Assembly: GCF_024223415.1 (NCBI RefSeq)
Contig: NZ_CP100501.1
Length of the DNA: 64,000 nt
Reading direction: 5' to 3' (one strand)
Origin: Escherichia coli
GTDB taxonomy: Bacteria > Pseudomonadota > Gammaproteobacteria > Enterobacterales > Enterobacteriaceae
Positions 1 through 27,235 of this stretch are shown here, one piece after another. Below the pieces are notes generated by a model that worked only from the letters and a program-made list of their open reading frames with translations, ran no database searches and was not told the origin of the DNA. Position 1 is the first letter of the stretch. Every line of letters starts with the position of its first letter. Position numbers and translations under genes: made by a program.

Positions 1-2
1 CG

Positions 3-233
3 ACAAAAGCAAACTTCTTCGGACACCTGAAAAAGCCACAAATTATCGCAGCCCTGAATGAGGCCGGACTGTCCGGTGCCGCACGGGACGCGGAGAAGAT
101 GAAGAAAGGTGATGCGGCTGAACATGCAGAGCACCATATGAAAGACAACCGCTGGGTTCCAGGCTGGATGTGTGCACCACATCCACAGACAGATGCCACT
201 GAACGCACCGATAACCTGGCTGATGCCGCCTGA
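3..233 (+). CDS. 3' end of an upstream leading-region gene (5' part outside window); product not recognised
   Basis: Open frame runs from the window edge to TGA at 231-233 (about 76 codons, no stop), same strand as psiB; absent from ORF track because there is no in-window start. Confidence 0.3.
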   Translation, partial: TKANFFGHLKKPQIIAALNEAGLSGAARDAEKMKKGDAAEHAEHHMKDNRWVPGWMCAPHPQTDATERTDNLADAA

Positions 234-287
234 TGAACAACCACACCGCCCCGCCGGAGACGGGGCGGCAGCAAGGGAGATACCGTG

Positions 288-722
288 ATGAAAACTGAAC
301 TGACCCTGAATGCCCTGCAGTCCATGAACGCACAGGAATATGAAGATATCCGTGCTGCGGGAAGCGATATGCGCCGTAATCTCACTCACGAGGTGATGCG
401 TGAAGTGGACGCACCGGCTAACTGGATGATGAATGGCGAGTATGGCAGTGAGTTCGGGGGCTTTTTCCCCGTCCAGGTTCGTTTCACGCCAGCCCACGAA
501 CGTTTCCACCTGGCATTATGTTCGCCGGGAGACGTCTCTCAGCTCTGGATGCTGGTTCTGGTGAGTGGTGGTGGACAGCCTTTCGCCGTCGTTCAGGTGC
601 AACATATCTTCACGCCTGTCGCGATCAGTCACACGCTGGCGCTCGCCGCGACACTTGATGCGCAGGGATACAGTGTTAACGACATCATTCATATTTTGAT
701 GGCAGAAGGAGGTCAGGCATGA
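288..722 (+). CDS. psiB: PsiB, plasmid SOS-inhibition protein (RecA inhibitor)
   Basis: About 144 aa starting [25 protein letters not shown], which matches PsiB of F/IncI leading regions from memory; SD AAGGGAGA upstream; 4-bp overlap with the following psiA-like gene. Confidence 0.85.
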
Positions 723-1438
723 GCGCACGTTCACGGGCACTGATCCCCCTCAGCGCAGAACAACAGGCCGCTATGCAGGCTGTGGCTGTCACCGAACAAC
801 GTCGTCGTCAGGGACGCACACTTTCAGCATGGCCTTATGCCACCGCTTTCTTTCGCTGCCTGAATGGCAGTCGCCGGATTTCGCTGACCGATCTCCGCTT
901 TTTTGCCCCTGCGCTGACGAAGGAGGAATTTCATGGCAACCGTCTCCTGTGGCTGGCTGCAGTGGACAAACTGATTGAAAGTTTTGGTGAAGTCTGTGTT
1001 CTTCCCCTGCCATCCGATGCGGGGCATCGTTTGTTCCCGTCCGTTCCTTTTCGTGAAGGTGAGCGGCGTCGTCAGAAAACCACGCTGACAGAGCAGAAAT
1101 ACAGCCGCCAGCGGGAACGTGAGGCAGAACGACGGGAACGGGAATACCAGACATGTTTTGCTCAGGCGCAGATTGACCTTGCGTTTCATACTCCCGCCAC
1201 GGTCGGAAGCTGGTTGTCCCGCTGGTCTGGTGTTGTTGAGGAGCATGATCTGGAAACGATTTTCTGGGGGTGGTGCGGGCGTTTTCCATCACTGTCATCA
1301 TTTGACCGGTTTTTCTGGCAGGAGGAACCACTCTGGCGGTTGATTTTTGAAGCCGGTGAGGCCGGTCGTGGTGCACCGGTACAGGTACGTGCACTTGAGC
1401 AGTGGATGATCCCGAACAAGCTGGAGAACGTAATATGA
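719..1438 (+). CDS. psiA: PsiA, plasmid SOS-inhibition protein A
   Basis: 239 aa, the canonical PsiA length; N-terminus [18 protein letters not shown]; translationally coupled to psiB. Confidence 0.8.
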
Positions 1439-2031
1439 TGAAATCAGACGAAAAATACCAGGTTCCCGCGTGGATGCGACCTCTGTTGCCGTTGCTCTGC
1501 AACACCGGGGAGAACGATCCGGAAGAACTGCTGAATGATACAGAAACCACTGCCAGTGCGAATGTTGTCCGTTATGTGCTGATAGTTGCTGTGCGGTCGC
1601 AGGTTGATCTGCTGCAGCTTCTGTACAGGAAAGGGCTGTTGCGCACAGAGATACCAGGTGGCTTTTCACCGGAAGAAGCGCAGGAACTCCTGGATAATCT
1701 GGTGCGCAGCCATATCAGCAGGGCGCTGTCGGGTGAGCGAATGGCAGCCCGTGACAGGAATGCCGATCTGGCCTGGATTCGACAGCAACTGGTCGATGCC
1801 GCCTGGTTTGTCCGTGCCACACTGGAAGCGCATGGGATGAGCGTCGGAAATGAGAGTCCCCCTGCTCAGCCGGAGACAATGCCGGACATACAGACACGGG
1901 AACTGGTGATGTTGATCAAGCGACTGGCATCATCGCTGAAAGCGGTGAAACCGGACAGTTGTGTGGTGCGTGAAGCGCAGGACTGGCTGCGCGACAGAAA
2001 ACTTGTGAGCATCACGGATGTTCTTCGGTGA
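1435..2031 (+). CDS. hypothetical leading-region protein (198 aa)
   Basis: ATGATG overlap with psiA stop; same strand as leading-region operon; no recognisable domain. Confidence 0.5.
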   Translation: MMKSDEKYQVPAWMRPLLPLLCNTGENDPEELLNDTETTASANVVRYVLIVAVRSQVDLLQLLYRKGLLRTEIPGGFSPEEAQELLDNLVRSHISRALSGERMAARDRNADLAWIRQQLVDAAWFVRATLEAHGMSVGNESPPAQPETMPDIQTRELVMLIKRLASSLKAVKPDSCVVREAQDWLRDRKLVSITDVLR

Positions 2032-2495
2032 ACCAGTGGAGGTATGCTTGAGGAGCAGGGACATGCCGGTCATGATCGTTTCGTTCCAGGGGTGGTCTGG
2101 AGATCATGCGGCGTGTCCTCTGCACTCGCCGGAATAAGGACGTCGCCGCCGGCTCCGCTTTTACCCGGCCATGCGGGGCATGGCCTTGTGGGTTTTCAGC
2201 TCTGTGGCCTCAGCGTCGTGTGCGGGCTGTGCCGTGCCTCCATCGTAGCCGGGCTTCTGCGGGCGGGATGCAAGGTAAGATGAACCGCTGCGGTCACCCG
2301 GTCCCTCCTTCCCGTCTGCCGTGATTTTCCGGTCGTTCACCCGCTCAGATTTCGCGGTCTCACCCTCCAACTCCCGTCAGCCGTGCGCGTCGGGCTGCGG
2401 CTTTCCTTGCGCCCTTGCATCCCTGCAGGCCCGGCAAAGATGGAGGCACGGCACCGCCCGGTGTCGCAGAACATGTGACTATGGAGGATTCGGGA

Positions 2496-2996
2496 ATGTC
2501 TGTTGTTGCACCTGCTGTATACGTTGGAACCTGGCACAAATATAACTGCGGAAGCATCGCCGGCCGCTGGTTTGACCTGACCACGTTTGATGATGAACGC
2601 GATTTTTTCGCCGCCTGCCGTGCCCTTCACCAGGATGAAACCGATCCGGAACTGATGTTTCAGGATTATGAGGGTTTCCCGGGGAATATGGCCTCTGAAT
2701 GTCATATCAACTGGGCCTGGGTTGAAGGCTTCCGCCGGGCACGGGATGAAGGCTGCGAAGAGGCTTATCGTCTCTGGGTGGATGATACCGGTGAGACGGA
2801 TTTTGACAGCTTCCGCGATGCCTGGTGGGGCGAGGCTGACAGTGAGGAGGCTTTTGCGGTTGAGTTCGTCAGTGATACCGGCCTGCTGGCTGACGTGCCG
2901 GAGACGGTGGCGCTCTATTTTGACTATGAGGCGTATGCGCGGGATTTATTCCTGGACTCCTTCACCTTTATTGACGGTCATGTGTTCCGTCGGTGA
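2496..2996 (+). CDS. ardA: ArdA antirestriction protein (DNA mimic, anti type I R-M)
   Basis: 166 aa, MSVVAPAVYVGTWHKYNCGSIAGRWFDLTTFDDERDFFAACRALHQDE; acidic C-terminal half typical of ArdA; preceded by ~460 bp of GC-rich untranslated leader. Confidence 0.9.
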   Translation: MSVVAPAVYVGTWHKYNCGSIAGRWFDLTTFDDERDFFAACRALHQDETDPELMFQDYEGFPGNMASECHINWAWVEGFRRARDEGCEEAYRLWVDDTGETDFDSFRDAWWGEADSEEAFAVEFVSDTGLLADVPETVALYFDYEAYARDLFLDSFTFIDGHVFRR

Positions 2997-3348
2997 TTTA
3001 CTCCCCCGCTCCGGCGGGGGTATGGCCTGCCGGGCCGCCGGAAAACCCTGGCAGGCTTACGCCTGCCTGAAATACAGGAGGGCCGCGCCTGCGGCGCTGC
3101 CCTTCCTGCCCGTCATGGTGTGAGGCATTTTTCTGTTTTGTCGTTTCTGTTGTTCTGATGCCCGGAGGCGGGGACACCCTTCGGCTCCCGGCTGCCTGGC
3201 GGCATCCGGTCGTCGGCCCGACTCCGACAGGCAGCTGCTGGCGCACCCGCCAGTCTCCGCCGAACCCGCTGGCGCGGTTTCGGGCTGCCGCTACGGTCCG
3301 ATGTCTGAAAAACCAGGCCTGCAGCGACCGTTCCGGTCGCGCCGCCCC

Positions 3349-3675
3349 TGTCGCGCCGGAAACGGCGCTCCCTGCACACCTGACGGTGTGTAAGGCCACT
3401 GCGCCTGATGGCGCAGTCAACCCTTCCGCCGCCACCCCTGCGGCCTGTTTCCCGCTGTGGACTTTCCGGGGGCTGAAGCGGCCACAACACGGGGCAGCCG
3501 TCCAGGGGAGAGATGTACCAGCCACAAAACTTTTTGCCGCAGGCGTCAAAAACTTTTGCGTCTGCCCCCGGACAACTGCCCCGTGCCGTGGCAGTCGCTG
3601 CCCCATCGGAAAGGTCCACTGCGGGGAGAAACCCCGAAGAAGTGGACGGCAGAAGGGGCTTTCGCCCCTCCGGGG
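3349..3675 (+). promoter_or_regulatory. Frpo/ssi-like single-strand promoter repeat, copy A
   Basis: About 330 bp GC-rich non-coding segment, near-identical to 6214-6543 (more than 80 bp identical around ccaggggagagatgtaccagccacaaaactttttgccgcaggcgtcaaaaacttttgcgtctgcccccggacaactgccccgtg); ends about 50 bp before the start codon at 3725. Confidence 0.55.
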
Positions 3676-3724
3676 GAGCAACCGGTCGGCCCGGCGACCT
3701 GATTCAGCAGAAGGAGACGTTTTC

Positions 3725-4159
3725 ATGACAGTCAGCAGCACGATTTCCGTTTTTTGCCGAGACGGGGTGTTCCGTACCGTTTACTGCCACCTGCACGGTG
3801 AGCCGACCTGGAACGGTCGCATCCTGCATACCCACTATGCCACCGGTCAGCTGGCCGAAGCCCTGGTTGAACACGGAGATATCCGTTGCCTCGGTCCCCG
3901 TTGCGACAAACCCGCCGGGCATACGCTTCAGAACCCGGTGGACGGTGTGACGGCTTATTACGGACGTGACAGTGGTTTCCGGATGGACAGTGAGGCGCGT
4001 GAGTACCGTTCTTTCAGGGAGGCTATTGCCACTGAAAGCACTGAAGAGGTGCGCTTCCATTATGTGTTCATCGACGGCTACTGGAAGGTGATGTACCGCA
4101 CGCCGGAAGGCTGGAAGATGAAAGCGCTCGCGCTGGCACTGCGTCGCTGTCCGGAATGA
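3725..4159 (+). CDS. hypothetical protein (144 aa), first gene downstream of promoter repeat A
   Basis: ATG at 3725 with GGAGACG SD-like sequence; MTVSSTISVFCRDGVFRTVYCHLHGEPTWNG; no recognised domain. Confidence 0.6.
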   Translation: MTVSSTISVFCRDGVFRTVYCHLHGEPTWNGRILHTHYATGQLAEALVEHGDIRCLGPRCDKPAGHTLQNPVDGVTAYYGRDSGFRMDSEAREYRSFREAIATESTEEVRFHYVFIDGYWKVMYRTPEGWKMKALALALRRCPE

Positions 4160-4250
4160 AAAAAAGCAGGGCGATAAACCCTGCCTCTCTCCGCCGCTGC
4201 TTCCCGGCCAGGAAGAGCGGCAGTCATCAACAACATAAGGAGAAATATTT

Positions 4251-4517
4251 GTGAGACCATCAATTATCTTCGCAACCGCCGAGTATGTAAAGCGTCTGCG
4301 TGAAGAGTGCCTGCGGGAGAATAAACCCCTGCACCGCCATACCCGCTTCAGACGTCAGGAGCTGGCACAGGATGAGATTAACCCGGACGTCCTGGCGATG
4401 AGCGGTCATATCGCCAGACGCTGCAGTGAGCAGAAGCGGGTGCGTATCCCCGCCATGAAAGTCAGCGAATGGGGCCACCTGCTCCGCGCGCTTGAAATTG
4501 AACGGGTCTGTCACTGA
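4251..4517 (+). CDS. hypothetical protein (88 aa, GTG start)
   Basis: AAGGAG SD 8 nt before GTG; lies between the 144-aa gene and rpn. Confidence 0.45.
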   Translation: MRPSIIFATAEYVKRLREECLRENKPLHRHTRFRRQELAQDEINPDVLAMSGHIARRCSEQKRVRIPAMKVSEWGHLLRALEIERVCH

Positions 4518-4581
4518 TTAACCCTTGCCGTCTGCCTGTGCAGGCGGCAGGATACGTTCAGACATCTCACCAGGAGGAACC

Positions 4582-5460
4582 GTGAGTAAGAAGAAAAACA
4601 CCACAACGCCCACGCCGCATGATGCCGCGTTCCGGTCGTTCCTGGCGAATCCCGACGTTGCCAGGGATTTTCTGGAGTTGCATCTTCCTGCGGAGTACCG
4701 GCAGTTGTGCGACCTGTCCACCCTGAAGCTGGAACCCGCCACCTTTGTTGAGCCGGACCTGCATCAGTACGCCAGCGATATCCTCTGGAGTGTGAAAACC
4801 ACCGGGGGTGAAGACGGCTATGTTTATACGCTCATCGAGCACCAGAGCACCGAAAATCTGTACATGCCTTTTCGCATGTTACGTTACAGTGTGGCGGCGA
4901 TGCAGAGACATCTGGAGCAGCACAAAACGTTGCCACTGGTCATTCCGGTGCTGTTCTATCACGGTGAGCGCAGCCCGTACCCGTACAGCATGAACTGGCT
5001 GGACTGTTTTGAGAATCCGGCACTTGCGGCTAAAATATACACAAAGCCGTTTCCGCTGGTTGATATCACTGTCGTTGATGACAATGAAATCATGAACCAT
5101 CGCCGGATGGCCGCACTGACGCTGCTGATGAAGCATATCCGCCATCGTGACATGATGGAGCTGCTGGACAAACTCCCGCAGGTCATGGTGGAAATTTCAG
5201 ACGAGCAGGTGCGTGTTCTGATTCATTACATCGTTAACGCAGGGGACACTGTATCACCGGAATTTATGCGGGCGCTGGCCGAGCGCCTGCCGCAGCATGA
5301 GGATAAACTGATGACAATCGCAGAACGTCTTGAGCAGAAAGGTGCGCTTGAAAAAGCCCTGGCCATTGCGCGTCAGCTTCAGAAAATGGGGATGACACCT
5401 GAGCAGATTAAGCAGGCCACCGGACTTTCCGAAGCTGAACTGAAAAAAGTCATTCACTGA
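4582..5460 (+). CDS. rpn: Rpn family recombination-promoting nuclease (YhgA-like PD-(D/E)XK)
   Basis: AGGAGG SD then GTG; HDAAFRSFLANPDVARDFLELHLPAEYRQLCDLSTLKLE and FYHGERSPYPYS motifs as in E. coli RpnA-E; C-terminal tail MTIAERLEQKG...TGLSEAELKK. Confidence 0.8.
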   Translation: MSKKKNTTTPTPHDAAFRSFLANPDVARDFLELHLPAEYRQLCDLSTLKLEPATFVEPDLHQYASDILWSVKTTGGEDGYVYTLIEHQSTENLYMPFRMLRYSVAAMQRHLEQHKTLPLVIPVLFYHGERSPYPYSMNWLDCFENPALAAKIYTKPFPLVDITVVDDNEIMNHRRMAALTLLMKHIRHRDMMELLDKLPQVMVEISDEQVRVLIHYIVNAGDTVSPEFMRALAERLPQHEDKLMTIAERLEQKGALEKALAIARQLQKMGMTPEQIKQATGLSEAELKKVIH

Positions 5461-5474
5461 TGAGAGCATCACAG

Positions 5475-5498
5475 CCCGGCAAAATGCCGGGCTTTTTG
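5475..5498 (+). terminator. rho-independent terminator-like hairpin after rpn
   Basis: cccggcaaaatgccggg followed by cttttt. Confidence 0.45.
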
Positions 5499-5521
5499 CC
5501 AGCAGGAGCAGAGCAAACAGC

Positions 5522-5728
5522 ATGACGATTGCAGAACGTCTTATACAGAAAGGTTTCGACGAGGGTTTTAAAGAAGGTTTTAAAGAAGGTTTTAAACAAG
5601 GAGCTCTTGAAGTGGCGCGGGAAATAGCCTGCCGGCTTCGGGATATAGGCTGGTCGCCGGAACGGATTCAGGAGGTCACGGGACTTTCCGGTGAAGAACT
5701 GAAAAAGCTGTTTCCTGATGAGCAGTAG
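5522..5728 (+). CDS. stand-alone small protein resembling the Rpn C-terminal domain (RpnS-like), 68 aa
   Basis: MTIAERLIQKG...ALEVAREIACRL...TGLSGEELKK aligns with the last ~49 aa of the upstream Rpn protein; contains three 12-bp tandem repeats encoding EGFK (5561-5596). Confidence 0.55.
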   Translation: MTIAERLIQKGFDEGFKEGFKEGFKQGALEVAREIACRLRDIGWSPERIQEVTGLSGEELKKLFPDEQ

Positions 5729-5758
5729 CCTGGCATTCAGCCAGGCTGTGAATCACGC

Positions 5759-6010
5759 TCACACATCCTCTGCCGTTTCCCCCAGTTCATTTTCCAGTCG
5801 CCTGATGATATCTGCCTTACGCATCCCCTGCATGTGAGGCAGCAGGTCACGGACTGAAAGTGCCTGGGTGGTCCTCCAGACGGTGACGTCCACCTGTTCC
5901 GCATTTTCCCAGGCGTGCCATGTTCTCTGCGTCACGCCAAATTCTCTGGCCGCTTTTTCGCGTGACCAGAGCATGCTTTTTCGCCAGATTCGCAGTTCCC
6001 ATCCGGTCAT
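5759..6010 (-). CDS. small helix-turn-helix DNA-binding protein (83 aa)
   Basis: AREFGVTQRTWHAWE HTH-like motif; divergent from promoter repeat B; palindromic sites in its upstream region. Confidence 0.55.
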   Translation of the reverse strand: MTGWELRIWRKSMLWSREKAAREFGVTQRTWHAWENAEQVDVTVWRTTQALSVRDLLPHMQGMRKADIIRRLENELGETAEDV

Positions 6011-6025
6011 AAAACACCTTTGAAA

Positions 6026-6111
6026 AAGTGAAAAAACTTCACTTTATTTTATCATCACAATTGCCAAATCAGCGCGATAAATAAGTGTAAAAAAGTGAAG
6101 AAATTTCACTT
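6026..6111. promoter_or_regulatory. two palindromic operator-like sites, AAGTGAA-N5-TTCACTT
   Basis: aagtgaaaaaacttcactt at 6026-6044 and aagtgaagaaatttcactt at 6093-6111, in the intergenic region between the HTH gene and promoter repeat B. Confidence 0.4.
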
Positions 6112-6213
6112 TTTTTGGTTGTAAATGTCGTGCGGTTTTCTCTGTTTTCACCTGTGCGGGAGTGGTGTGCCAGTGACCACCACATGCCATTGTTGTGCCG
6201 TCGTTTTTCTTCA

Positions 6214-6543
6214 GTCGCGCCGGATGCGGCGCTCCCTGCACACCTTACGGTGTGTAAGGCCACTGCGCCTGATGGCGCAGCTGCCTCTGCCTGTCTGCCG
6301 CCGCACTGCGGCCTGTTCTCCGCAGACGGACTTTCCGGGGGTACATACACGACCACATCCCGTTTCAGTCGTCCAGGGGAGAGATGTACCAGCCACAAAA
6401 CTTTTTGCCGCAGGCGTCAAAAACTTTTGCGTCTGCCCCCGGACAACTGCCCCGTGACGTGGTGAGCGTCCCCCGTCGGAAAGGTCCACTGCGGGGAAAT
6501 CCCCGAAGACCCGGACGGCAGAAGGAGCTTCGCTCCTCCGGGA
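6214..6543 (+). promoter_or_regulatory. Frpo/ssi-like single-strand promoter repeat, copy B
   Basis: Near-identical to 3349-3675; ends about 45 bp before the start codon at 6587. Confidence 0.55.
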
Positions 6544-6586
6544 AATGACCTGGCTGACCCGGCAGTCGTGACGATGAGGAGACAAT

Positions 6587-7438
6587 GTGATGAATCAGAC
6601 TTTACCCACTGCTGACCTGAATACTGCCGGCACGACAGATGTTATTCCGTCTGTGGCTATCGACCGCATCATCGCGCAGCGTAACGAAGGTATTGCACTG
6701 TTCATGCAGGCGATGGAATGCCTGGCGACAGCGCGCAGGATTCTGCTCGATGCTTCCGGTGACATTTTTCTCTACGGGTTTGAAGACTGCGTGACTGACT
6801 CCGTTCGATGCATGGATAAACCGGAAGAAGCGAAAAGGAATATCACCCGTCTTGCCGACCGGAAAATCTGGGACCGCCTGATGACAGATACGGGCATGTA
6901 CACCTTCATGAGTTCATGCCAGCGTGATGAGTGGAACAGCCAGCTGATGAGCGACACCTGTCCTGAAATCACCCTGGACAATGTACTGGCAACATTCCGC
7001 CATCTTAATGCCAGCAAGATGCAGACATTTGAACAGGGACTGATTGATGTCTACCGGAAATTGTCATGGGATTACAGAACCAATAATCCCTGCCGTCTGG
7101 GCAAGAAAATCATTATTGAAAACCTGCTGTACCGCTGGAGTAACGGGCGTGTGACGCTGGACTGCAGCAGACGGGAGGCACTGGATGACCTGGTACGTCC
7201 GTTTTATCTGCTGGAGGGGCGCAACGTTCCTGACTTCAGGAACAGCATCGGGGCGCAGTATGGTGAATTTCTCAGGAACGGCGACAATGTCGGTAAGTTG
7301 TTAGAAGGGGAATATTTTACGGTGCGTGGCTACCAGAAAGGGACCGTACACATTGTCTTTAAGCGTTCTGACCTTGTTGAAAAACTGAATGATATTATTG
7401 CACGGCATTATCCTGGTGCATTGCCGCCACGAGTCTGA
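6587..7438 (+). CDS. hypothetical protein (283 aa), first gene downstream of promoter repeat B
   Basis: GGAGACA SD-like then ATGATG; no catalytic motif recognised; followed by a hairpin terminator. Confidence 0.6.
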   Translation: MMNQTLPTADLNTAGTTDVIPSVAIDRIIAQRNEGIALFMQAMECLATARRILLDASGDIFLYGFEDCVTDSVRCMDKPEEAKRNITRLADRKIWDRLMTDTGMYTFMSSCQRDEWNSQLMSDTCPEITLDNVLATFRHLNASKMQTFEQGLIDVYRKLSWDYRTNNPCRLGKKIIIENLLYRWSNGRVTLDCSRREALDDLVRPFYLLEGRNVPDFRNSIGAQYGEFLRNGDNVGKLLEGEYFTVRGYQKGTVHIVFKRSDLVEKLNDIIARHYPGALPPRV

Positions 7439-7448
7439 TTAAACAGAA

Positions 7449-7481
7449 AAGCCCTGGTATTTATGCCGGGGCTTTTTTTTC
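7449..7481. terminator. hairpin plus T-run, likely bidirectional terminator
   Basis: aagccc...gggctt stem followed by tttttttt between convergent genes. Confidence 0.5.
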
Positions 7482-7523
7482 TGTAATCATCATAATCTCA
7501 GAACACGATGTGACATTGTCACA

Positions 7524-7865
7524 TCAATTGTTGTTCATATCGATGCCATCTTTCCTGCCTGAATCTGTCTTTTTAGGTGCTGTTTTAGAGGAAGAACGGC
7601 GGGATGTTTTTTTCGATTCTGCTTCCCGAATAATGTCACGAAGTGCCTTCTCTCCTACTTCATACCCTGCATTTTTGAGCGTGTCACGAATATCTGCCAG
7701 TGTATAACCCTTTGTCCTTACCAGGACAATAATGTCATCACGAATGGCATCAAGAAAATCACGCAATGTTTTCCGTTGAGCGGTGAGATCTGGCAATTCC
7801 GATAAAGCAGCTTTTGCCAGCTGGATGTCATCATCTGAGTAAAATTTTTTAGAAGCCATTGGCAC
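7524..7865 (-). CDS. hypothetical oriT-proximal protein (about 111 aa) with basic C-terminus
   Basis: MASKKFYSDDDIQLAKAALSELPDL...; lysine/serine-rich C-terminal tail; transcribed away from oriT. Confidence 0.5.
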   Translation of the reverse strand: MPMASKKFYSDDDIQLAKAALSELPDLTAQRKTLRDFLDAIRDDIIVLVRTKGYTLADIRDTLKNAGYEVGEKALRDIIREAESKKTSRRSSSKTAPKKTDSGRKDGIDMNNN

Positions 7866-7989
7866 TTTCTCTCCGTTTAATCTTGAAGCCTGATTTTATC
7901 ATCAAAAACTGACTCCTGGCAGGGCTGCGCCCTGCCTCTGCCGTCTGCATAAGACTATGATGCACAAAAATAACAGGCTATAATGGCAT

Positions 7990-8090
7990 GAAAAACGGGA
8001 CAGGATGTGTAATCGTATAACCGCGCACGCACGGCTATACGATTACCACCTGGTCAGGGCTTAGCCCCGACACCCCGGTAAGGAGCAGAC
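7990..8090. other. origin of transfer (oriT) region
   Basis: Intergenic region immediately upstream of nikA with 11-bp inverted repeat gtaatcgtata (8009-8019) / tatacgattac (8036-8046); nick position not determinable by eye. Confidence 0.55.
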
Positions 8091-23666: not shown

Positions 23667-23976
23667 GGGGATTCCTCCATAGATGAATGGATAAATTTCG
23701 GGATTAAGTCGGGTGGCATGAATGCGAATCAGCGCCGGTAATAACCGGACAGGAATGAATTCAACAGGACATTTTTACAGAGAAGAGCGAACGGCAGAAG
23801 GTGGTGGGAGACAGGTACAAAAAAACCGACTGGTGAGGCCGGTTTTTTTGCGATTCCGGGGTGGAGTTGGTGGCTCTGACCGGAGGAAGTCTCTTTTCAG
23901 CTAACAATGAGAGAGCTGTTGTGACAGGCAATGTAAGAGTAAGCAGCAGTGATTTCCTCCATTGACGGAGAAACGG

Positions 23977-26687: not shown

Positions 26688-26941
26688 CGGTGGGGTACAA
26701 ACGCAGAAATTTTGTTGTCATTACATCATCAGTTTTAGCCTGCAGAGACGCTGAAAAATCAGCGTTTTCAGACCCTGTTCAGGTTAGTGAATATTCTTGC
26801 CTGGCCTTTCGGCAATATCAATCCCCTGATGTGTGCACACGTAGTCACTTTCCGGCTTTATTTCTGTCCCTGACACAAAATACGTGGTGGCATGAAAAGG
26901 ATTGTGGCGGACAGGAAAACGATTAGAATAGCGGCGGGCGC

Positions 26942-27235
26942 TTGAGGCTGTATGCCGAAAGCGTTTTGTGGACGGCATGTAGCAGAAAGCCCCAGGCGAT
27001 TTTTTTATCAATCAACCCAGGGCCCACTGTAATGCCTAGACAACATTATAGTAGCCCGATGACGGCCGAAAGGCAATGGAGGGGCTGCGATGCCACAACG
27101 AACGTTTTTAATGATGTTAATCGTCGTCTGTGTGACGATACTGTGTTTTGTCTGGATGGTGAGGGATTCGCTTTGCGGATTTCGTATCGAGCAGGGAAAT
27201 ACGGTGCTTGTGGCAACGTTAGCCTACGAAGTTAA
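26942..27235 (+). CDS. pndC: PndC-like overlapping reading frame (mok analogue) of the pnd locus
   Basis: ORF overlapping pndA in another frame, as in hok/mok architecture. Confidence 0.4.
   Translation: MRLYAESVLWTACSRKPQAIFLSINPGPTVMPRQHYSSPMTAERQWRGCDATTNVFNDVNRRLCDDTVFCLDGEGFALRISYRAGKYGACGNVSLRS

Follow-up and report, generated by a model that had tools for sequence, protein, structure and literature searches.

The leader of the anti-restriction gene ardA in the analysed window, a stretch of 64,000 nucleotides of Escherichia coli DNA (contig NZ_CP100501.1), very probably carries at 2136-2488 a copy of the published class 2 single-stranded DNA (ssDNA) promoter (ssp2/Frpo3), which would serve ardA by analogy with the copies in pESBL and F. 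Homology, position, strand and structure place the leader in the class 2 family. It is an already known element, and the preliminary description of this DNA, which proposed a further ssDNA promoter here with a sequence divergent from Frpo and ssi, had rediscovered it correctly. This proposal is supported by the homology to pESBL, the fold, the asymmetry between strands, covariation and the lack of similarity to class 1 promoters.

The hairpins located 5' of klcA and ardA in pESBL are alike, have no homology to ssi1-3 or Frpo and were named class 2 ssDNA promoters (Wen et al., NAR December 2025, PMC12672017). In that study, the transcription starts mapped by 5' RACE agreed with the predictions, and the genes concerned were strongly induced 15 min after mating, the induction lasting longer in a uvrD recipient. 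Independent work arrived at this element under the name Frpo3 (bioRxiv 10.1101/2025.04.03.647016); in F it is called ssp2 and is reported, in addition, to hold up synthesis of the complementary strand until UvrD resolves it (bioRxiv 10.64898/2026.01.09.698686). A relative was listed as candidate 'Frpo' 4' by Samuel et al. 2024.

The ardA leader and its plasmid context

The leader comprises 464 bp between the stop codon of the preceding open reading frame (ORF), which ends at 2031, and the start codon of ardA (Table 1). Its G+C content is 63.8%, compared with 52.1% in the window and 54.9% in ardA. ORFs of 69-122 amino acids overlap it on both strands. Scanning all of these ORFs and all open frame pieces of the leader against Pfam gave no family match, and the 4- and 5-nt indels that distinguish two common alleles of the element fall within the leader ORFs. 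The leader was unannotated in 28 of the 30 plasmid records sampled. The initial view of about 460 bp lacking a credible ORF is therefore retained, and a hidden gene, including the 'DUF1472' label of some records, was ruled out, since no Pfam family was matched. The label 'DUF1472 domain-containing protein' is attached to the class 2 element in some records; it lacks Pfam support and is probably spurious, arising on G+C-rich non-coding DNA.

Table 1. Features of the ardA region and related sites (window coordinates, unless a record label is given)
Feature	Position	Strand	Basis and remarks
ardA	2496-2996	plus	166 aa; Pfam ArdA, E=5e-30; anti-restriction protein gene
ardA leader	2032-2495		464 bp
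First part of the leader	2032-2135	plus	context-specific, outside the promoter core; common only to ardA-context copies
Conserved core, class 2 (ssp2/Frpo3) ssDNA promoter	2136-2488	minus	homology
Terminator-like hairpin	2167-2199	plus	sequence; GGCCATGC-GGG-GCATGGCC, then TTGTGGGTTTTC; just upstream of the promoter hairpin, inside the class 2 core
Non-template arm	2223-2273	minus	folds, motif scan; -35 TTGCAT is the reverse complement of 2268-2273 and -10 TACGAT that of 2242-2247, 20 nt apart
Apical part	2274-2412	minus	alignments, fold; branched, very highly conserved among class 2 copies
Template arm	2413-2460	minus	inverted repeat, fold; nearer ardA
Predicted transcription start	2448	plus	7 nt past the -10 box, from the geometry of the hairpin
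Shine-Dalgarno GGAGGA	2483-2488	plus	sequence; 7 nt ahead of the ardA ATG
Hairpin after ardA, cccccgctccggcggggg	3003-3020	plus	perfect 7-bp stem CCCCCGC/GCGGGGG, loop TCCG; 6 nt after the ardA TGA
Small perfect G+C hairpins	247-267, 3003-3020, 3050-3067, 5473-5493, 5728-5746, 7918-7936
Class 1 (Frpo/ssi2-type) promoter	3350-3675	minus	homology to ColIb-P9 and F Frpo regions, published ssi2 sequence; drives the next gene, 3725-4159
Second class 1 copy, ssi1-type	6214-6542	minus	homology to ColIb-P9 ssi1 and F Frpo1/2
20-nt-spacer allele	2223-2273 with 2413-2460; L016 1095-1137
Distant relatives of class 2	L007 1203-1240; L012 1203-1240; L011 1209-1246 and 1969-2006; L008 1201-1238; L013 1034-1283
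Hairpin of the DUF1281-methylase operon	L006 3279-3316; L004 2664-2701; L002 22376-22413		pESBL, F, ColIb-P9

No plus-strand sigma-70 site was revealed by the consensus scan in the leader upstream of ardA. The first part of the leader forms an imperfect hairpin at about 2050-2127 in the fold, and the alignments to the window leader begin at 2055 for pESBL and at 2087 for ColIb-P9. The terminator-like hairpin at 2167-2199 folds as RNA at -18.5 kcal/mol and possesses a T-rich tail, falling just short of the T-run rule of the terminator scan. It is kept in all class 2 copies; a metagenomic relative has a different stem at this place, which is still self-complementary. This hairpin may serve to keep transcription of the psiB-psiA operon from running on into ardA.

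The 464-bp leader is 100% identical to that of NZ_CP016548.1, a conjugative plasmid of the IncK2/Z type (I-complex), in which psiB, psiA, an unknown ORF, ardA, several small genes, mobA (a nikA homologue) and the relaxase gene follow one another, the last two located about 5-5.5 kb rightwards of ardA. The window represents the leading region of a plasmid of this type. A comparison of the leader with the window by blastn gave no second copy; the copy of class 2 found upstream of klcA in this plasmid type lies outside the window. The Rfam scan of the whole window at gathering thresholds yielded no match within 2032-3724. Elsewhere, matches at 26936-27092, 12391-12477, 18042-18158 and 23817-23904 correspond to a sok antitoxin RNA (hok/sok-type), two ALIL frameshift pseudoknots of IS3-family insertion sequences, and AgrB.

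The motif CACATCCTGTCCCG, which we take to be that of the R64 oriT (IncI1-type) nick region, has a single exact match in the window, on the minus strand at 7996-8009. Judged by its sequence, this match would mark oriT, just upstream of the mobA gene. A perfect inverted repeat (7918-7936) adjoins the motif. From the strand on which the motif lies it follows that the minus strand of the window is the one transferred; it serves as template for ardA and passes into the recipient beginning at about 8000 and proceeding towards 1. The distance from ardA to the motif is about 5 kb, with the mobA and relaxase genes beyond it. The leader is thus situated in the leading region and co-oriented with an anti-restriction gene templated by the transferred strand.

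Homology, fold and promoter boxes of the class 2 element

Matches to the core at 2136-2488 occur in more than 5,000 plasmid records. Over 447 aligned positions, the leader shares 90.4% identity with its pESBL counterpart upstream of ardA; with that of ColIb-P9, the comparison that the preliminary description had called for, the identity is 91.6%. The identity of the core to the klcA copies of pESBL, ColIb-P9 and F reaches 87-88% (87.2% for the klcA leader of pESBL), and that of the leader to candidate 'Frpo' 4' is 79-83%. The class 2 profile recognises the window leader at E=9e-77.

Local comparison of such leading regions separates two unrelated repeat families. Family A is the ardA leader, which recurs in ColIb-P9 and pESBL ahead of both ardA and a klcA/ardB-type anti-restriction gene; the F copy precedes klcA. 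Family B is represented by the 728-bp spacer after ardA (2997-3724, core at about 3350-3675, ssDNA fold z=-14.2) and by 6214-6542; it corresponds to Frpo1/Frpo2 of F and ssi1-3 of ColIb-P9. Comparing the leader with the class 1 copies of the window gave no match, either by blastn at E values up to 10 or by nhmmer with the class 2 profile. By sequence the leader is consequently not a class 1 member, whereas the copies at 3350-3675 and 6214-6542 do match the published ssi and Frpo elements. The source record carries a minus-strand 'hypothetical protein' across the ssi2-type element (2998-3606; L001 9967-10575); it has no Pfam support and is probably spurious. It had been stated that ardA of ColIb-P9 is reported to be expressed from a single-strand promoter. 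The ardA leader of that plasmid belongs to family A; the three published ssi repeats are not the drivers of ardA, and ssi2 is located downstream of it, pointing away.

Folding of the strand complementary to ardA, also proposed at the outset, revealed a stable structure: the minus-strand leader folds with z=-5.15 against dinucleotide shuffles and the plus strand with z=-4.46, and none of 100 shuffles was as good. A 32-nt inverted repeat with 91% complementarity connects 2223-2254 with 2429-2460. On the transferred strand, a hairpin of about 240 nt is formed, the main stem of which pairs 2223-2273 with 2413-2460 by 44 pairs and contains TTGCAT and TACGAT in the fold, so that promoter boxes are rebuilt within a stem-loop. 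The non-template arm reads on the minus strand, 5' to 3', CCTTGCAT...GCCCGGCTACGATGGAGGCACGGC, and two bases of its -10 box are opposite mismatches. In the plus-strand reading, the template arm gives TTGCAT-15 nt-AAAGAT, which appears to be a poor promoter as a duplex and is consistent with weak activity. Such a poor duplex reading, together with the absence of a conventional sigma-70 site, fits a promoter that is active only while the DNA is single-stranded. The 5' untranslated region (UTR) counted from the predicted start near 2448 would be 48 nt long; in the pESBL homologue the start site was mapped by 5' RACE (PMC12672017).

The stem was compared in 14 aligned relatives, comprising ardA and klcA copies, a metagenomic candidate and copies from Erwinia, Enterobacter, Yersinia pestis pMT and Serratia. 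In the consensus stem of 39 pairs, 95.3% of the cells are paired and 19 pairs show compensatory changes; none of 500 shuffles reached the observed values, and slid partner columns were paired at 34-44%. The stem is supported by covariation. The transferred strand folds better than its complement by 1-13 kcal/mol in 11 of 12 relatives. In 10 of the 14, G stands opposite the first T of the -35 box, a G:T pair that only the transferred strand allows. Nearly all members leave the central -10 bases unpaired. Thus, the architecture common to class 1, a hairpin promoter on the transferred single strand, is found in the leader by fold and covariation.

The relatives are always located directly upstream of a gene and co-oriented with it (ardA, klcA or a methylase gene). 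Distant relatives were observed upstream of DNA methylase genes (an Erwinia amylovora plasmid, Yersinia pestis pMT), klcA-type genes (Enterobacter, Klebsiella) and a hypothetical gene (Serratia pADAP). The Klebsiella copy is recognised by the class 2 profile at E=4e-17; simple minimum-free-energy folds of the Phytobacter and Klebsiella regions did not reveal a long stem. The class 2 family therefore extends well beyond the IncF and IncI plasmids of E. coli. In pUMNK88_Hly (L014 270-320), unrelated sequence takes the place of about 45 nt in the apical region of class 2, both promoter arms being intact. A remnant of an insertion sequence or MITE was rejected as an origin of the element, given the fixed position and orientation of the relatives upstream of genes and the compensatory changes in their stem.

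The motif TTGnnn-N-TAnnnT-5 nt-(C/T)ACGGC has 19 matches in 11 plasmid records. Its spacer N is exactly 15 nt in 16 of these matches, which come from 9 other plasmid records, and 20 nt in the window, in its identical source record and in a klcA copy of IncFIA. On the template arm, the spacer is 15 nt in the window versus 19 nt in pESBL. In the window allele, the stack between the boxes still has about 15 rungs, and the bulged bases are on the arm opposite to that of the tested allele. At least 1,387 plasmid records contain the 20-nt allele, which is found ahead of ardA as well as of klcA; for the 15-nt allele the number is at least 4,515. The 20-nt allele is therefore a common natural form, other than the one tested experimentally, and the promoter strength of the window allele could differ from that of the tested alleles.

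The hairpin after ardA

The hairpin previously noted right after the ardA stop codon is indeed present (3003-3020), with a perfect stem of 7 bp, all pairs being G-C, and a 4-nt loop. It resembles intrinsic terminators as a G+C-rich stem-loop immediately 3' of a stop codon and differs from them in having no U-tract. On either strand, the stem lacks a U-tract after it (the next sequence is TATGGCCTGCC), and the terminator scan did not call this hairpin. For these two reasons, it is not a canonical terminator. With flanks, it folds at -23.5 kcal/mol; its RNA z-score on local composition is only -1.6 and hence not exceptional, because runs of G and C fold readily.

Within 1-8000 of the window, perfect stems rich in G+C and 7 bp or longer are about 18-fold enriched (9 observed versus 0.5 +/- 0.7 in shuffles). 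Four of these small hairpins are located within about 15 nt after stop codons, and a T-run follows only the one at 5473-5493. The 3003-3020 stem is kept with different flanks in pUMNK88_Hly, a plasmid with a divergent ardA, where a single C to T change gives a U.G pair on the plus strand versus a C.A mismatch on the minus strand. The enrichment and this conservation suggest that the hairpin is not noise.

Factor-independent termination of ardA transcription at 3003-3020 seems rather doubtful. The stability of a G+C stem beginning 6 nt past the stop codon and its retention in pUMNK88_Hly, where the altered base still allows RNA pairing, speak for such a terminator; however, apart from the missing U-tract, the failure of the scan to call it and the modest local z-score, a similar hairpin (247-267) immediately precedes psiB within its operon, at a point where terminating transcription would be disadvantageous. 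Most likely, though with low confidence, the hairpin marks, stabilises or weakly terminates the 3' end of the ardA message, a reading based on its position and on one divergent homologue.

Proposed mechanism, rival readings and known systems

According to the proposed mechanism, the minus strand enters the recipient 5' end first from the nick near 8000, with ardA about 5 kb behind, the incoming strand itself being the template. Before its complement is synthesized, the leader folds back on itself, forming the hairpin of about 240 nt, as the fold and the covariation show. The stem mimics a duplex promoter, as seen from the sequence, with the 3' arm as the non-template strand carrying -35 TTGCAT and -10 TACGAT and the 5' arm as the template, and the two mismatched positions leave the -10 box partly pre-opened. 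Host sigma-70 RNA polymerase would then start near 2448, exit at the base of the stem and transcribe ardA off the single strand, in line with the experiments on the homologues. ArdA would be made before the DNA becomes a double-stranded target of type I restriction. Once the complement is made, the hairpin would disappear, leaving the duplex TTGCAT-15 nt-AAAGAT as a poor promoter, and expression would drop. By analogy with F, synthesis of the complementary strand may in addition be held up at the stem pending its opening by UvrD, and the single-stranded phase would be prolonged. It counts against the promoter reading that the -35/-10 stack of about 15 rungs, found in every allele, is short for sigma-70.

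Two other explanations of the leader were considered. One, highly improbable, is that ardA has a long 5' UTR of the ordinary kind, its transcription beginning at a conventional double-stranded promoter or continuing from psiB-psiA by read-through, with the hairpin acting as a regulator at the RNA level. The plus strand does fold well (z=-4.46), and the co-oriented upstream genes make read-through possible; however, the leader has no plus-strand sigma-70-like site, the stem is separated from the upstream operon by the terminator-like hairpin (2167-2199), in 11 of 12 relatives the better fold is that of the minus strand, the conserved G:T pair being confined to that strand, and the 5' RACE starts of pESBL fit the predictions for the hairpin promoter (PMC12672017). 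The chance is equally slight that the element is mainly a DNA-processing signal, i.e., a priming site or a roadblock for complementary-strand synthesis, in which the promoter boxes would be secondary. In its favour, the apical region is conserved beyond the needs of a promoter alone; Frpo-type elements can prime DNA synthesis, and in F synthesis of the complementary strand halts at the foot of the ssp2 stem, a stall that UvrD resolves (bioRxiv 10.64898/2026.01.09.698686). Yet both the ssp2 preprint and Wen et al. treat the element as a promoter too, deletion of ssp2 is stated to abolish the downstream anti-restriction protein (bioRxiv 10.64898/2026.01.09.698686), and the relatives are invariably found directly upstream of a co-oriented gene. 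The promoter and processing roles are compatible and do not exclude each other. The class 2 ssDNA promoter is the preferred reading of the leader.

Promoters active on ssDNA supply anti-restriction and anti-SOS proteins within minutes of entry, ahead of the host defences acting on duplex DNA, and so play a central part in how resistance plasmids spread. The window copy introduces no new principle; it extends the published class 2 element to the service of ardA in IncK2/Z plasmids, and the element is seen to have two common structural alleles. Its relatives well beyond the plasmids of E. coli could aid in the annotation of leading regions. The bulge-swapped allele and a possible kinship of class 2 with class 3 are minor leads.

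Class 1 ssDNA promoters are represented by Frpo1/Frpo2 of F (Masai & Arai 1997; Couturier et al. 2023, PMC9849209) and ssi1-3 of ColIb-P9 (Bates et al. 1999). They share their principle with the ardA leader, which would by analogy work like Frpo while not being a class 1 member by sequence. Unlike the leader, they drive ssb/psiB-type and other operons, not ardA, and have no detectable sequence similarity to it.

Class 3 (ssp3, M.EcoGIX methylase operon) has been published as unlike the other classes (PMC12672017). The hairpin upstream of the DUF1281-methylase operon, which is presumably the class 3 promoter, has TTGCAT-15 nt-TAACGT-5 nt-CACGGC and several short blocks in common with class 2. 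It differs in lacking the apical segment of about 55 nt, and the class 2 profile scores it at E of about 0.05-0.08 only. These sequence resemblances hint at a common ancestry of the two classes. We put forward only tentatively, and with more doubt than belief, that the 20-nt allele is a naturally selected tuning variant of promoter or roadblock strength and that classes 2 and 3 are diverged members of one family, with an invariant core TTGnnn-15 nt-TAnnnT-5 nt-CACGGC across Erwinia, Yersinia, Serratia, Klebsiella and Enterobacter plasmids.

The closest similarity is to class 2 of pESBL and F. Like them, the window element lies in the leading region directly 5' of ardA (other copies precede klcA), the transferred strand being the template; nucleotide identity is 87-92%, and the long hairpin, its TTGCAT and TA..AT boxes and the mismatch in the -10 are likewise shared. 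It differs from the tested copies in its spacers, 20 nt on the non-template and 15 nt on the template arm versus 15 and 19 nt, and in its host plasmid, which is of the IncK2/Z type.
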